Positions 53,569-57,747 of a stretch of DNA of 64,000 bases are shown here, in pieces. The stretch covers positions 1 to 64,000 of the forward strand of contig DXJV01000006.1 of assembly GCA_019056785.1 (NCBI GenBank), read 5' to 3'. The position numbers were made by a program, and so were the translations under genes. The notes under the pieces are model-generated. The model did not search any database, was not told where the DNA came from, and saw only the letters and a list, made by a program, of their open reading frames with translations. Source of the DNA: Candidatus Heimdallarchaeota archaeon. GTDB lineage: Archaea > Asgardarchaeota > Heimdallarchaeia > JABLTI01. Within the stretch, counting starts at the first letter, position 1. Each line of letters starts with the position of its first letter.

Positions 53569-54315
53569 TCATTTTTCCCCTTGGTCAATGTGACATATCA
53601 TTCGTAATTGACATTGAGCACAACTTTCCTTTTTTAGGAAGAAATTTTCGGCTTCAATTTTTTGCAGGATTTGTTGAATTTTGTTCTCTACCACCTTTTT
53701 CAAACCGGAAGGATACGGCTGTACTTCTAGCTTGCCTATTGAATAATAGTAACATCCTACTTCTTTTAAGGTTAAATCTTCCCAATTGTTTTCGATCATA
53801 AACTCCTCTACTAAAAGTGCATAGAATTGTAATGCCTCAAAGTCCATCGAGTTTTGAGATTTTTTGTAATCTATTAATCGTAGATCTCCATTTTCATTTA
53901 TGATTTCAAGACAATCAACAATCCCCCGTTGTTTTTTTGTCATTAATGCTAGTTCGGTATATAATGGCTTCCAGTAATATGTTCCTCTGCAAGTAATATA
54001 TCTTTGTTGTTGATAGTTCCAAAAATTTAGCAATTCCTTCTTCGCTTTAATCTCAGGAGGGATAATCCCTTTAGAAATGCAATAGGCATAGAGTTGATGA
54101 AACGTAGCAAAAAATTGATGCAACTTAATACCTTCTAATTCTGTTTCATTATATCCCCGTAAGATATATTCACTAATTGTTCGTTTTGTAGTTTGAAAGG
54201 AATTTTTCATGGGAAGAGGATTGAGGATTCGATAAAGTCGAAATTTTTGAGGGCATTCTTGAAAGTAAAAATATTCTTGTAAACTTAAATTCAATTCATA
54301 ATCGTAAACAACCAA
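53569..54315 (-). CDS. Cas4-like PD-(D/E)XK nuclease with 4Fe-4S Cys set
   Basis: N-terminal CP, RGIVD...IDYK, LQFYA, C-terminal CAQCQLRMIC. Confidence 0.88.
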   Translation of the reverse strand: MVVYDYELNLSLQEYFYFQECPQKFRLYRILNPLPMKNSFQTTKRTISEYILRGYNETELEGIKLHQFFATFHQLYAYCISKGIIPPEIKAKKELLNFWNYQQQRYITCRGTYYWKPLYTELALMTKKQRGIVDCLEIINENGDLRLIDYKKSQNSMDFEALQFYALLVEEFMIENNWEDLTLKEVGCYYYSIGKLEVQPYPSGLKKVVENKIQQILQKIEAENFFLKKESCAQCQLRMICHIDQGEK

Positions 54316-54317
54316 AC

Positions 54318-54836
54318 CTATTCCTCCTCTTTCACAATTCCTTTTAACAAAAAGGGATTTTTTAATAACAGTTTAAAAATATTAATGATTTGCTCGCCTG
54401 TACCTAAATAAGGAGAGTTGTATTCCATGACTAAATCATTGATAAAATCAGCTTCTTCTTTAATAGAGAGAGGGCGTATTTTTTTAATCTTAAGCTCCTC
54501 TTTAATTTTTTCTAGTTTTTTTCTCTTTTGAAAATATTGTAGGATTAAGTTGATTAGTTCTTTAACATTTTCACGTGTGAAATTTTCATTGGCATAAAAA
54601 TGAGTGTAGTATTCAAACAAACATGAAAAACTTAGAGGGGGATTTGGTTTATTAACATTTAATATGCAAGTTTTATAACGTGACTCAGTTCTGCTAAAAG
54701 TTATTAGTTGACGCTGCTCCAAAATAGAGAGATAACCTATTACTTGATCCCATTTCCACGGCAAAGATTTCTCCAGATCTCTAATTTTCAATGCTTTTGT
54801 TTTCCCAGAAAAAACAAAATCCTTTATGAGAGTCAT
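54318..54836 (-). CDS. Winged-helix protein
   Basis: LKIRDLEKSL...VIGYLSILEQRQLITF; abuts the Cas4-like gene. Confidence 0.6.
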   Translation of the reverse strand: MTLIKDFVFSGKTKALKIRDLEKSLPWKWDQVIGYLSILEQRQLITFSRTESRYKTCILNVNKPNPPLSFSCLFEYYTHFYANENFTRENVKELINLILQYFQKRKKLEKIKEELKIKKIRPLSIKEEADFINDLVMEYNSPYLGTGEQIINIFKLLLKNPFLLKGIVKEEE

Positions 54837-54993
54837 AACAAAAAAATGAGTTTTAACAAGACTATAATTACAAAGGGGGGCAATAGCTTCTTTAATTTCT
54901 ATACATCTTTCGTTAGAAAGTTCTCTAATGTGCGACCCGTTTTTTATACACTTTAAAAGTTTCTCTCGAAATTTTCTTAGGAATATTTCACTC

Positions 54994-56988
54994 TTAATTT
55001 GGCAACACCTCTTGAATCATCAATGGATGAAAAGGAGTCTCCTTCAAGAAATTCTTTAGATGCTTCTTTAGAGCATAAATTACTTTTCTTGGTAAATAGT
55101 CAACATTTTTTATTTCTTGTAATAATTTCCAAGCGGTATAATATTGTCCTGTTTCTTTGTTAAAAGTCATAATATTTGCAGAACTAATTGGTACTTCAAA
55201 ATATAACTTCTGACGCAATAGAATGTTCTTCTCATACGCCTTTAGTAGAGTGACTCTTTTTTCATCAAAAGTAATGACTTTCATTTGTAAAACCTCTTTG
55301 GCGATTTGCCTAATAACTGCGTCTCCCTCTGTTTCAGGCATAAGGCAATAGAGTAAATCATATCTTTTTCCTCTTCGCTCGAAAAAGTGGCTTGGTAATA
55401 ACCTTTCTTCTCTAATAGCAGCATTGATACAAAGCATGGTTACTAGCTTTCCGGATTCAAAATCATCATAAAAAAGTCCTTTCGAATAGTTTCTATGACA
55501 CCAACCTCGGAAACCATCAAAAGCAAACCCAAGTTTATTGTATACAGCTTCTTTTATAGTGTTGGCAATTCTACGATTAATACTATTAATGGCACAATCA
55601 TATTTCGAACGGGCATAGTCCAGCCCGAATGGAAGAAAGTGCTCCCCTCGAACCATCCTAGCCTTTTCACGTGATGAAGAGAAAAAACCAAAGTGTTTGG
55701 CTTCTTCCTTAAAGGGATTGAACATTATACTTCCTCCACCTCCTTCTAATTGTTGCCAATATTTGAAATCCAATTCACGAGGTATTCTAACCATTTCTTT
55801 ATACCTTTGTAATCGTTTCTTTGCAGTTAAATAGAGTTCTTTGCTTCTTCCAGTTGTTATTGCGTTATATTCCAAGATAGCTTCTCGTGAGCGAAAGTTT
55901 CCCTCTAAACAAATAGAGTTGCAGATACCCGTTGCAATAAAGATTTCATTCCCACCAATTTCTAGTTCAGAAGGCTCAGAGCTTTGGGGTGGTATGCGTG
56001 GCTCATAAATAGTTATTTTTTCAAATAAGCCCTTTCTCTCAAAGTTATTATTTGTGTATTCACTATGAAGTTTTTTTTTCAAATCAAAGTATGTTGGCCA
56101 TCGATTGCAGCTAATAAAGTCAATCTTTTTTAAAGGGAAATAGCACACTTTTTCTAAGTTGTCTTCTATTATTGGTGTTCCGGCAAGAAAAATAACCTCA
56201 TTTTTTAAATCTATATGGTAGTAAGCATCTCTGTCAATTGATATTCCAAAGTTTTTTGCTGAACTTCTCCATTCCAAAAGGCTCCCTGTTAGTTTCCTAA
56301 AGTCCTTAGCTAAAATATCAAATCTAGCGTCCCAATAGATTATCTCATAGCGTTTTAAGTGTTTGTTAAATCTCATCCTCATTGGCGACCCACAATGGGG
56401 GCAATAAAAAGTTGCTGCGCCAATCTTAAAATGGCTCAAAGCTTCACTTTGTTCAAAGATAACTTTTTTGCATCGTTCCACTGGGCAATGAAACAAGAAA
56501 TCTTGTGAAGTATTTTTTTTAATAAAACTATTTACTTCCATGGAATTTACATGTCCATTAACTCTCAAATCAAAATATTCACACGCCGGTGTGTTGGAAG
56601 ATAAAACATCTTTTTGTGCTCTAGCTTTTAATTTAGCATCAAAAAGCAAACTTTTATTATAAGCAAGATCTAACAACACACAACGACGAACCAGCGTAAA
56701 GCGTTGACATAAGCCACATCTTTTACTGCTTACTTTGTTAGCGCCTTCTTCTTTAAATGATGTCTTCTCTCGTTTATAGTAAACTAAGACTTTTCTTTGA
56801 ACATTCCTTTTTTCTAACTGACAATAAATCTTGTTTTTCAAGACTAATTTTGTTAAAATTTTATTAATATACGAAGGAGATTTTCCTACTTTTAACGCTA
56901 TTTCTTTACATGATAACCCTTCGAATCCTTTCTTTCTAAATGGAACTAATTTTTCAATTGCTTCCATAAGTAAAGACTGTAACCCCAT
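54994..56988 (-). CDS. Highly diverged Cas1-family integrase fused to N-terminal HTH and Zn-binding modules (Asgard aCas1-like)
   Basis: LEG (E415), DCAINSIN, GFRGWCH (H498), LFYDDFE (D508/E511) follow the Cas1 EG...N..LN...G.LH...L..D..E order; HTH at aa ~25-55; CGLC/C/C and CPVERC/CPHC. Confidence 0.8.
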   Translation of the reverse strand: MGLQSLLMEAIEKLVPFRKKGFEGLSCKEIALKVGKSPSYINKILTKLVLKNKIYCQLEKRNVQRKVLVYYKREKTSFKEEGANKVSSKRCGLCQRFTLVRRCVLLDLAYNKSLLFDAKLKARAQKDVLSSNTPACEYFDLRVNGHVNSMEVNSFIKKNTSQDFLFHCPVERCKKVIFEQSEALSHFKIGAATFYCPHCGSPMRMRFNKHLKRYEIIYWDARFDILAKDFRKLTGSLLEWRSSAKNFGISIDRDAYYHIDLKNEVIFLAGTPIIEDNLEKVCYFPLKKIDFISCNRWPTYFDLKKKLHSEYTNNNFERKGLFEKITIYEPRIPPQSSEPSELEIGGNEIFIATGICNSICLEGNFRSREAILEYNAITTGRSKELYLTAKKRLQRYKEMVRIPRELDFKYWQQLEGGGGSIMFNPFKEEAKHFGFFSSSREKARMVRGEHFLPFGLDYARSKYDCAINSINRRIANTIKEAVYNKLGFAFDGFRGWCHRNYSKGLFYDDFESGKLVTMLCINAAIREERLLPSHFFERRGKRYDLLYCLMPETEGDAVIRQIAKEVLQMKVITFDEKRVTLLKAYEKNILLRQKLYFEVPISSANIMTFNKETGQYYTAWKLLQEIKNVDYLPRKVIYALKKHLKNFLKETPFHPLMIQEVLPN

Positions 56989-56991
56989 TTC

Positions 56992-57747
56992 TTAAAACTC
57001 CTCAATATTTAACCCTCTATTTACCATTGCATTTAATAGCCAAGGAATTTGCAAACGTTCAGATTCTAACTTCTTATGAATAATTTCTTTTTGTAAGGAC
57101 ACTGTGAGCCCATTAACATGATTTTTTTCTTCGCGCCTGAATCCAAAAATTATTTCTTCAGCAAATTGATACAAAGGATTCTGTTCAAGTTCTATTGGGT
57201 CATCAAAATCAACGTCCTTTACTTTTTTTACCCATTGCTCTTGTTCTGAAATCCATTGGAGATACCCCCTTATCTCTTGAATCTCTTCATCAGTGTTTTT
57301 TATCAATCTGTTAATTTGCTCAATAGCTGCAGAAAAGTTCACATTTGCAGGGAAAAATCCTCTTTTAAAAGGGGGATGTTCATCGATATCATCATTTGTA
57401 TTCTGTTCAGTAAACCCAAATAACGTAACCAAAAGAGTTTGAACAAATTCATTTGTAAAGTTTATAGTTATTCTCCGATTTTGGCCATCTCTCCCATATT
57501 CAATAATTTTCATATTGTCAAGTTTTTGTAAAGTTACCCCAATAGTTTTTGGGGTTCGCCCTGTAATTTTAACAAGAGCTTGTACAAAACCAGTTACGGA
57601 CCATTTATTTTCAATGATGCAAAGAAACAATAATGTTAGAAGAATTTCTTCCATCGAAGAAGTGATCTTAAAGTGCTTTAGGCCTTCTAAAATTGTGGAT
57701 GTTTGATCTAAATTATCAATAGTTCTAGAGACCATCACTTTTCCCAA
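56992..57747 (-). CDS. Winged-helix + coiled-coil protein
   Basis: TPKTIGVTLQKLDNMKIIEYGRDGQNRRITI wHTH; 3 nt upstream of the Cas1-like gene. Confidence 0.65.
   Translation of the reverse strand: MGKVMVSRTIDNLDQTSTILEGLKHFKITSSMEEILLTLLFLCIIENKWSVTGFVQALVKITGRTPKTIGVTLQKLDNMKIIEYGRDGQNRRITINFTNEFVQTLLVTLFGFTEQNTNDDIDEHPPFKRGFFPANVNFSAAIEQINRLIKNTDEEIQEIRGYLQWISEQEQWVKKVKDVDFDDPIELEQNPLYQFAEEIIFGFRREEKNHVNGLTVSLQKEIIHKKLESERLQIPWLLNAMVNRGLNIEEF

Follow-up and report, generated by a model that had tools for sequence, protein, structure and literature searches.

A 7,912-bp unit beside the 3' end of a tRNA-Val(GAC) gene in an Asgard archaeon appears to be variably present among natural genomes, and one of its genes encodes what sequence motifs and structure modeling identify as a very diverged Cas1-type integrase with intact catalytic motifs. 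The unit lies in a 64,000-nucleotide (nt) stretch of a Candidatus Heimdallarchaeota archaeon genome (the window; assembly GCA_019056785.1, contig DXJV01000006.1, positions 1 to 64,000) and carries genes for a Cas4-like nuclease, two winged helix-turn-helix (wHTH) partners, the Cas1-like protein, and a protein with LAGLIDADG and helix-turn-helix domains (LAGLIDADG-HTH). We put at about even (roughly 0.5) the probability that this unit is a cassette targeting tRNA 3' ends, with the Cas1-like protein mobilizing it, LAGLIDADG-HTH selecting the target or acting as a nuclease, and the Cas4-like protein processing ends. A prediction made earlier from the sequence of the window (the original prediction) had proposed either a minimal Cas1-driven mobile element or a non-CRISPR DNA-capture system. 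Labels below denote genomes (G; G000 is the window's own), contigs (C; the window's contig is C88), and loci (L).

RESULTS

Predicted Cas1 fold and active site of the 664-residue protein

The structure of the Cas1-like protein was modeled with AlphaFold2 from an alignment with 13 relatives (predicted local distance difference test score, pLDDT, 70 to 90 over residues 245 to 664). The original prediction had hung on a Cas1 fold in the C-terminal domain, and when the model was compared with the PDB by Foldseek, the top 50 matches were all Cas1 or casposase (best E value, 8.6e-8; 350 to 420 aligned columns). The best structural matches included the Cas4-Cas1-Cas2 complexes 8d3p, 8d3l, and 7mi4/5. 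VIA-align matched the catalytic domain (residues 339 to 660) to A. fulgidus Cas1 4n06_A with a Z score of 18.6 over 242 amino acids (aa) at 3.3 Å, and to casposase 6opm_B with a Z score of 17.7. As modeled, the protein is a two-domain Cas1 fold, with an N-terminal beta-sandwich and a C-terminal alpha-helical catalytic domain. Residues 1 to 76 form a winged helix (VIA Z score, ~10), and eight invariant cysteines fall into two clusters (C91/C94/C103/C136 and C168/C173/C196/C199), in agreement with the HTH-Zn-Zn-Cas1 fusion first proposed; the Zn-binding region (residues 76 to 244) was poorly modeled, and its assignment comes from the conserved cysteines only.

The four predicted metal ligands named in the original prediction, E415, H498, D508, and E511, were intact and invariant in 14 sequences. 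Other invariant columns were R440/R444/R447/E449, N468, and R494-G-W-C-H498. When 34 Cas1-like proteins were compared with 14 canonical Heimdall Cas1 proteins by hhalign (E value, 1.8e-5; probability, 78%), E415 coincided with the glutamate of the EG motif, N468 with the conserved Asn, and H498, D508, and E511 with the LH...DxxE motif. The spacings from the His to the acidic residues are +10 and +13, the same as in E. coli Cas1 (H208, D218, D221). The 664-aa protein had no Cas1 match in Pfam, NCBIfam, PADLOC, or a profile-versus-PDB sequence search, and the Pfam Cas1 model PF01867 had zero matches in the entire assembly, this protein included. Membership in the Cas1 superfamily is therefore assigned from fold and motifs, sequence similarity lying below the level of Pfam Cas1 detection. 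The 13 relatives came from a collection of 5.8 billion proteins; those with names belong to Heimdallarchaeota, the remainder are metagenome proteins without a name, and Pfam domains are absent from all 13.

Presence and absence of the 7.9-kb unit

Contigs of four public metagenome runs were aligned to positions 49000 to 64000, the comparison covering assembled contigs with 30-nt sides and no raw reads. In runs X4 and X7, which belong to different studies, a contig joined 53132 to 61045 and skipped 7,912 bp. In run X4 the unit also assembled on its own, as a contig of 8,004 nt at 10.3x; depth was ~21x on both flanks and 8x for the joined form. Fixation of the locus would have spoken against the original prediction, but because contigs from two independent runs join across exactly the 7.9-kb unit, the locus is not fixed. 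The joined sequence had no match in a metagenome-contig collection, which may omit near-identical genomes.

The unit starts 7 nt past the tRNA CCA, and its other border coincides exactly with the stop codon of a HEAT-like gene, such that in the joined form this stop codon directly follows position 53132. The AT richness noted earlier was borne out, with a GC content of 33.8% in the unit compared to ~39.5% in the flanks (~6 points lower); along the window, GC was 30 to 36% at 53 to 60 kb and ~39 to 41% elsewhere. The four minus-strand open reading frames (ORFs) of the original prediction lie where it had placed them (Table 1; partner 2 in its annotated form, 54318 to 54836). The module nevertheless extends beyond these four genes, to the LAGLIDADG-HTH gene and the borders of the variable unit. 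The tRNA-side tract is not unusually structured (fold z of −1.6 versus shuffles), and the terminal tracts of the unit showed no DNA-level conservation with distant type-A loci (see below).

The tRNA-Val(GAC) of the original prediction is real, its coordinates being corrected here (Table 1); it lies 443 nt from the Cas4-like stop. Its introns, of ~30 nt after position 37 and ~31 nt in the T-loop, leave a clean cloverleaf once both are spliced out in silico. ARAGORN and Rfam called no tRNA beside the cassette, a false negative explained by the presence of two introns. The 20-mer at the tRNA-Val 3' end occurs once in the window. In congeners, tRNA-Val(GAC) has one intron or none.

Three other joints were set aside as unreliable or unexplained, with sides of <30 nt and depth above local: 52912 to 59288, 54222 to 59099, and, running backward, 59005 to 54840. 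The latter two were seen in runs X1 and X2 at 25 to 37x with sides of ~21 nt, and they may reflect another element sharing short words or rearranged variants.

Related cassettes at tRNA 3' ends

Gene content was counted from ORFs clustered across 25 related loci. Five core genes were each present in at least 22 of these: those for LAGLIDADG-HTH (22/25), the wHTH/coiled-coil protein, the Cas1-like protein, the p230 wHTH protein (24/25), and the Cas4-like protein. The Cas1-like tree has three deep clades, A (that of the window), B1, and B2, with a between-clade identity of ~22%, and gene orders differ among them.

Type-B2 cassettes end 2 nt (G010:C13) and 6 nt (G004:C217) from tRNA-Val(GAC), and a third (G010:C43) ends 61 nt from tRNA-Ala(GGC); each time, the tRNA 3' end faces the cassette. 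A decayed B2 cassette also lies at tRNA-Val in G005. At G010:C43, a direct repeat (52/55 nt identical), consisting of the last 32 nt of tRNA-Ala and at least 20 nt more, brackets 10.2 kb that hold TPR, AbrB, NERD, and HEAT-like genes along with the five core genes. No tyrosine or serine recombinase was found in the bracketed segment, where the Cas1-like gene is the sole integrase-type gene. The G005:C19 cassette also lies between partial tRNA 3' copies. At G010:C13, four more partial tRNA-Val 3' copies occur within 7 kb beyond the cassette, and after one of them comes a fragment 93% identical to the terminal cassette gene, p230, a pattern that suggests tandem accretion. All partial copies are of one allele, which matches the 3' end of the window's own tRNA-Val; in G005, G007, and G010, the stems of the resident tRNAs differ from this allele.

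Homologues of the HEAT-like gene, 47 to 50% identical, flank the G010 type-B2 cassettes at tRNA-Val and tRNA-Ala. Since the gene lies beside both type A and type B2, different cassette types seem to occupy one slot between the tRNA and the HEAT-like gene, which weighs against recent mobility. The HEAT-like gene is shorter in the window (159 aa) than elsewhere (225 to 233 aa; L047 16171-16872 and L057 3507-4184).

The tRNA-Thr(TGT) at locus L003 (13202-13278) was not counted as support; it is located 3' of the cassette and has the same orientation, and its partial 3' copy (~17208-17240, ~4 kb downstream) brackets unrelated genes. It is another integration hotspot adjoining a cassette.

The LAGLIDADG-HTH protein

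The window's LAGLIDADG-HTH protein matches Pfam LAGLIDADG_3 (1.5e-10) and HTH_3 (2e-5; Xre-type HTH), and in the related loci a LAGLIDADG_3 plus HTH_3 protein of ~525 aa is encoded upstream on the same strand. The motifs N175-G-D177-G and D271-x-D273-G-S were invariant in 19 homologues, and D177 and D273 are kept across paralogues at ~32% identity. By sequence, then, the protein has two LAGLIDADG motifs, each with a catalytic acidic residue, and it is apparently an active nuclease.

Members of the family have a 160-aa N-terminal extension that is conserved and a C-terminal half that is hypervariable. When the cassettes G004:C364 and G005:C48 were compared, protein identity was 97% for Cas1-like, 95% for Cas4-like, and 92% for p230; for LAGLIDADG-HTH it was 53% overall, with 70 to 78% over the N-terminal ~300 aa and 24 to 40% over the C-terminal ~250 aa. 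Likewise, G008:C122 and G008:C78 shared 84% (Cas1-like), 82% (Cas4-like), and 73% (p230) identity, and their LAGLIDADG-HTH proteins 52% overall, about 80% over the N-terminal ~300 aa, and 30 to 42% over the C-terminal ~250 aa. Targeting is more plausibly a function of this hypervariable half than of the HTH and Zn domains of Cas1 alone, to which the original prediction had assigned that role.

G000 carries three further LAGLIDADG-HTH paralogues. A TnpB (OrfB_IS605) gene lies 170 to 390 bp from the LAGLIDADG-HTH 5' end in 7 of the 25 loci, across all three clades (Table 1); it is mostly divergent and takes the place held elsewhere by a Cas7/Cas5-like pair. This neighborhood could represent an insertion hotspot or a functional link.

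Cas4-like nuclease and winged-helix partners

The Cas4-like protein matched Pfam PDDEXK_1 at 1.2e-10, above the cutoff. Conserved across 20 homologues were C21, D134, (D/E)149-x-K151, Y165, and C232/C235/C241; the protein thus has the RecB-type motifs (D, D/ExK, QxxxY) and the four Fe-S cysteines of the Cas4 family, as first predicted. TIGR00372 and the PADLOC Cas4 models gave 1e-4 to 2e-5, under their cutoffs, and because TIGR00372 scored 22.3 bits against a cutoff of 65, we refer to the protein as Cas4-like rather than as a cas4 equivalog.

Both partners proved to be winged-helix proteins by profile, model, and structural match, again as predicted. The family profile of partner 1 (251 aa) matches the SmtB/ArsR wHTH over residues 50 to 94 (E value, 0.002), with a weak match to Pfam HVO_A0114, and clade-specific equivalents lie upstream of the Cas1-like gene in all three clades. 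The frame of partner 2 (p230) is open back to 55010, an ATT codon overlaps the Cas1-like stop TAA, and the extra 55 N-terminal residues align with the ~230-aa family. From these alignments, the protein probably has ~226 aa and starts at ATT, or else its start codon has been lost. The wHTH core of its AlphaFold2 model has pLDDT scores of 72 to 86, and its top 50 VIA matches were all MarR/ArsR regulators (Z scores up to 9.7); p230 is not Cas2-like.

The 11-mer ATACTGGTAAA, found by a repeat search and TRF, is repeated in the promoter region of partner 1 (Table 1), and these repeats are likely an operator for one of the wHTH proteins. An inverted copy of ATACTGGTAAA lies at 59421-59439, inside the 3' end of the LAGLIDADG-HTH gene, and locus L003 has a similar repeated word, TTTACTAGTA, at the equivalent promoter position.

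Distribution of the family

Of 10 genomes from the same genus, 8 had matches to a Cas1-like profile, compared with none among 50 from other families within the class, and a hidden Markov model search of 1.84 billion representative proteins returned 31 at an E value of ≤1e-3, none of them canonical Cas1. The Cas1-like family is rare and confined to one genus. As many as 11 Cas1-like matches occurred in one genome, with stops or splits interrupting some of the copies; one recent intragenomic cassette pair retains 87% DNA identity over 4.9 kb. Canonical Cas1, present in 3 of the 10 congeners, did not track with the cassettes.

Giant Cas1-like forms (1,000 to 1,400 aa) were seen in G005 and G008 and also in G000, where a 1,311-aa protein (C16, locus L085, 11932-15867) has a Cas1-like region 24% identical to type B2 (E value, 1.5e-27) and adjoins two tandem LAGLIDADG-HTH paralogues (6205-7878 and 8326-10176). 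The ~750-bp "gaps" of type-B loci were considered as hidden arrays or RNAs and ruled out, as they encode wHTH partners.

RAMP genes, CRISPR arrays, and cas genes

The nearest relatives (L117 and L118), and 6 to 8 of the 25 loci, have three extra genes upstream of LAGLIDADG-HTH, which encode a Cas7-like RAMP (Pfam RAMPs above the cutoff; PADLOC Csm3, 2.9e-7), a possible Cas5-like protein, and a small AbrB/MazE protein. ORF, Pfam, and PADLOC scans found neither the Cas7-like/Cas5-like pair nor AbrB in the window's unit. Elsewhere in G000, RAMP pairs lie beside LAGLIDADG-HTH fragments at the end of C65 and the start of C49. The C65 fragment is 73% identical to the window's LAGLIDADG-HTH and is cut by the contig end, and this end may be a second, unassembled copy of the cassette; a six-frame Cas7-like match there (C65 72855-73487; L082 10859-11626) reads through one in-frame TGA.

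Profile and repeat searches confirmed that the window has no cas2, array, or PolB. Cas2 (PF09827) had no match in the assembly, the assembly's three PolB genes are all on other contigs, and no CRISPR array was found near the ~25 related cassettes. G000 does have genuine arrays, with repeats of two types (37 nt and 30 nt), located at contig ends (Table 1), with no recognizable cas genes nearby. The assembly, which is 82.5% complete, contained no canonical cas1, cas2, cas6, or Pfam-level RAMP genes. Given this completeness and the presence of the 37-nt repeat in G005, which has canonical cas1, a standard cas operon of G000 is probably unassembled.

Layout of the unit

Table 1 lists the features of the unit and its surroundings. 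The two ORFs on the strand opposite to the core genes matched no family in Pfam, NCBIfam, or PADLOC.

TABLE 1 Positions of features in the window and of TnpB genes and CRISPR arrays elsewhere
Feature	Location	Strand	Length	Remarks
tRNA-Val(GAC)	Window 52988-53125	+		Two introns, encoded CCA; 3' end faces cassette; outside variable unit
Variably present unit (whole cassette)	Window 53133-61044		7,912 bp	Defined by contig joints and composition
Non-coding end, tRNA side	Window 53133-53568		436 nt	No notable ORF
Cas4-like PD-(D/E)XK nuclease	Window 53569-54315	-	248 aa	Pfam PDDEXK_1, four Fe-S cysteines
Winged-helix partner 2 (p230 family)	Window 54318-54998	-		Annotated as 172 aa from ATG at 54836
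Cas1-like protein	Window 54994-56988	-	664 aa	wHTH, two Cys4 clusters, Cas1 N-terminal and catalytic domains (predicted)
Winged-helix/coiled-coil partner 1	Window 56992-57747	-	251 aa	Family profile matches SmtB/ArsR wHTH
Three copies of 11-mer ATACTGGTAAA	Window 57822-57886			Promoter region of partner 1; repeat search and TRF
Two ORFs	Window 58150-59335	+	102 aa and 313 aa	Opposite strand to core genes
LAGLIDADG-HTH protein	Window 59344-60951	-	535 aa	Pfam LAGLIDADG_3 and HTH_3
Distal non-coding end of unit	Window 60952-61044		93 nt	Promoter side of LAGLIDADG-HTH
HEAT-like gene (p159)	Window 61045-61524	-	159 aa	Directly outside unit
TnpB genes	L003 5121-6566; L027 4931-6427; L030 5961-7154; L050 3108-4706			
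TnpB genes (continued)	L051 1304-2932; L053 14684-15877; L056 4263-5456			
CRISPR arrays of G000	C30 20579-20768; C68 20-287 and 8844-9143; C98 145318-145663; C46 9826-9855; C63 4067-4103			

DISCUSSION

Comparison with known systems

Array-less derivatives of type III systems with nucleases, mostly with a distinct Cas1, have been described as ARAMP, and some Asgard Cas1 homologues as "possibly associated with novel MGE" (mobile genetic element), in published accounts (PMC8730458 and PMC12669027 for the former, PMC8730458 for the latter). Measured against those descriptions, the unit resembles ARAMP/aCas1 in being Asgard specific and array-less and in combining an extremely diverged Cas1 with nucleases, a Cas4-like one among them; a distinct diverged Cas1 with nucleases and no array in an Asgard host is what the window's unit contains. 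The likeness goes further in the relatives L117 and L118, which have Cas7-like and possibly Cas5-like genes. Unlike ARAMP as so described, the window's unit lacks RAMP genes and AbrB and thus the Cas7/Cas5 component of the class. Because RAMP genes and AbrB occur in the nearest relatives, the cassette belongs to the catalogued ARAMP/aCas1 class, of which, as placed by these published descriptions, the window's copy is a RAMP-less form; for this class, a role in defense is discussed just as much. A tRNA position, partial tRNA repeats, and presence/absence polymorphism were not found among the features reported in the portions of PMC8730458 and PMC12669027 drawn on here.

The unit resembles casposons in having a Cas1-family integrase without cas2 or an array and a predicted fold that matches 6opm (Z score, 17.7), and a Cas4-like gene is likewise present in some casposons. 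Family 2 casposons reportedly integrate at tRNA 3' ends, a finding ascribed to Beguin et al. in 2016/2019. Unlike casposons, the unit lacks PolB, and no terminal inverted repeats (TIRs) or 14- to 15-bp target-site duplication (TSD) were detected; it has a LAGLIDADG nuclease and two wHTH partners instead. Some casposases carry extra HTH and Zn domains on Cas1 (PMC9939771).

The Cas1 fold with E/H/D ligands and the adjacent Cas4-like Fe-S nuclease recall the Cas1-Cas2-Cas4 adaptation module, but the locus has no cas2, array, or leader, and its Cas1 is fused to wHTH and Zn modules. Islands of tyrosine recombinases share with the related cassettes insertion at tRNA 3' ends, direct partial tRNA copies as brackets, and tandem remnants; unlike them, neither the G010:C43 segment nor the window's unit has a tyrosine or serine recombinase, and the window's copy shows no second att copy. 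LAGLIDADG-HTH has the architecture of WhiA, with two LAGLIDADG motifs in one chain and a C-terminal HTH, and it keeps both motif aspartates, as active homing enzymes do. Unlike homing endonucleases, it lies outside an intron or intein and is always linked to Cas1-like and Cas4-like genes, and the 160-aa N-terminal extension and hypervariable C-terminal half set it apart from WhiA and homing proteins.

A mobile cassette and its alternatives

If the unit is a mobile cassette, the Cas1-like protein would be its integrase, joining the cassette ends to the target by Cas1-type transesterification via E415, H498, and D508/E511. Its wHTH and two Cys4 modules, together with the winged-helix partners, would replace Cas2 or the casposase HTH in DNA binding and assembly; LAGLIDADG-HTH would provide site-specific recognition or cleavage, with its swappable C-terminal half setting the specificity, and the Cas4-like Fe-S nuclease would process DNA ends. 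Strand transfer, the Cas1-like protein as the integrating enzyme, and all of the partner roles are steps that we infer. Judging from the fuller relatives with the Cas7-like/Cas5-like pair and AbrB, the family may also be a mobile defense module.

Since relatives at tRNA ends are bracketed by tRNA copies without another recombinase and the unit itself is polymorphic, the mobile-element half of the original prediction is favored; the element is not minimal, LAGLIDADG-HTH being part of it. Several observations weigh against mobility driven by the Cas1-like protein. The joint across the unit has no shared letters and the sequence between its sides is not known; the alternative allele could hold other DNA instead of being empty. 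No TIRs, TSD, or direct repeat above the shuffle level were found at the unit ends (the best alignment of the ends scored 24 versus a shuffle mean of 21.8; standard deviation, 4.1), neither a distal tRNA copy nor an att-like repeat was found in the window or elsewhere on contig C88, and no circle junction (61044 to 53133) was found among the assembled contigs, which cannot show rare forms. Empty tRNA-Val sites in relatives, to which the original prediction had looked, did not materialize as clean sites: the G001 candidate was rejected as a deletion that also takes part of the neighboring NERD gene, and the G007 and G005 intervals were both remnants. Upstream of the B2 cassette at tRNA-Val, the flanks are syntenic between G005 and G010; the cassette is therefore old and vertically kept in these genomes. 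In addition, IMG/VR viral contigs yielded no relatives, the hhalign probability reaches only 78%, the association with Cas7-like/Cas5-like genes, AbrB, and the NERD nuclease is typical of defense islands, and such islands likewise show presence/absence at tRNA hotspots.

In the main rival reading, which we consider possible though rather unlikely, the locus is an array-less, ARAMP-type defense system whose nucleases (LAGLIDADG-HTH and Cas4-like, with NERD and the Cas7/Cas5-like pair elsewhere) attack foreign DNA, whose Cas1-like protein has a function other than mobility, for instance in DNA capture or damage sensing, and which moves only passively, as conserved flanks recombine at a tRNA hotspot. 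The Cas7-like RAMP, possible Cas5-like protein, and AbrB beside LAGLIDADG-HTH in the nearest relatives speak for it, as do the published portrayal of ARAMP (PMC8730458 and PMC12669027) as derivatives of type III that lack arrays and have nucleases and a distinct Cas1, the diverged paralogues per genome and hypervariable LAGLIDADG-HTH region, which fit an arms race, and the lack of TIRs or a TSD in the window. The polymorphic unit in the window, however, has neither the RAMP pair nor AbrB, the integrase active site is intact across clades at 22% identity, and passive hotspot exchange fails to explain why partial tRNA copies of one allele bracket recombinase-free cassettes. Defense and mobility may both hold. 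A fixed, domesticated, or decaying remnant without present DNA-transaction activity, its polymorphism due to simple deletion, seems very improbable: some relatives are broken or partly deleted, the window's p230 partner has no canonical start codon, and the ends are unmarked by repeats, but all five window genes are intact with invariant catalytic residues, the identical joint recurs in two studies, and a random deletion would be unlikely to leave the tRNA (+7 nt) untouched and stop precisely at the neighbor's stop codon, as the breakpoints do. Also very improbable, in our view, is a diverged adaptation module acting in trans on the CRISPR arrays of the genome. In its favor, G000 has arrays of two repeat types and no canonical Cas1, Cas2, Cas6, or Pfam-level RAMPs; against it, only 82.5% of the genome is represented in the assembly and cas loci have often simply failed to assemble where arrays sit at contig ends, the 37-nt repeat is shared with G005, which has canonical cas1, the congeners' Cas1-like cassettes occur irrespective of canonical cas1, and neither cas2 nor an array accompanies any of the ~25 cassettes.

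Implications

Cas1 is known from two settings, CRISPR spacer integration and casposon transposition. Tentatively, and at less than even odds, the cassettes may represent a third Cas1 lifestyle, that of polymerase-less, TIR-less, self-integrating cassettes of 8 to 10 kb at tRNA 3' ends, in which a Cas1-like integrase would be combined with a LAGLIDADG target setter with a swappable C-terminal module and a Cas4-like end processor. If so, the fuller versions with Cas7/Cas5-like genes would be a natural Cas1-mobilized proto-CRISPR effector module. The kind of system is already catalogued (ARAMP/aCas1); diverged Asgard Cas1 homologues have been catalogued computationally, with a novel mobile element and non-programmable defense among the suggestions. 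Newly defined here are the exact 7.9-kb unit with its target 7 nt beyond tRNA-Val, the brackets of tRNA copies around related cassettes, and the presence/absence polymorphism. The locus provides a testable set of five proteins with intact active sites, in populations that seem to include occupied and unoccupied forms. If the Cas1-like protein does mobilize the cassette, it would bear on how adaptation and effector modules first joined, and a compact, site-specific integrase system could be developed from it.

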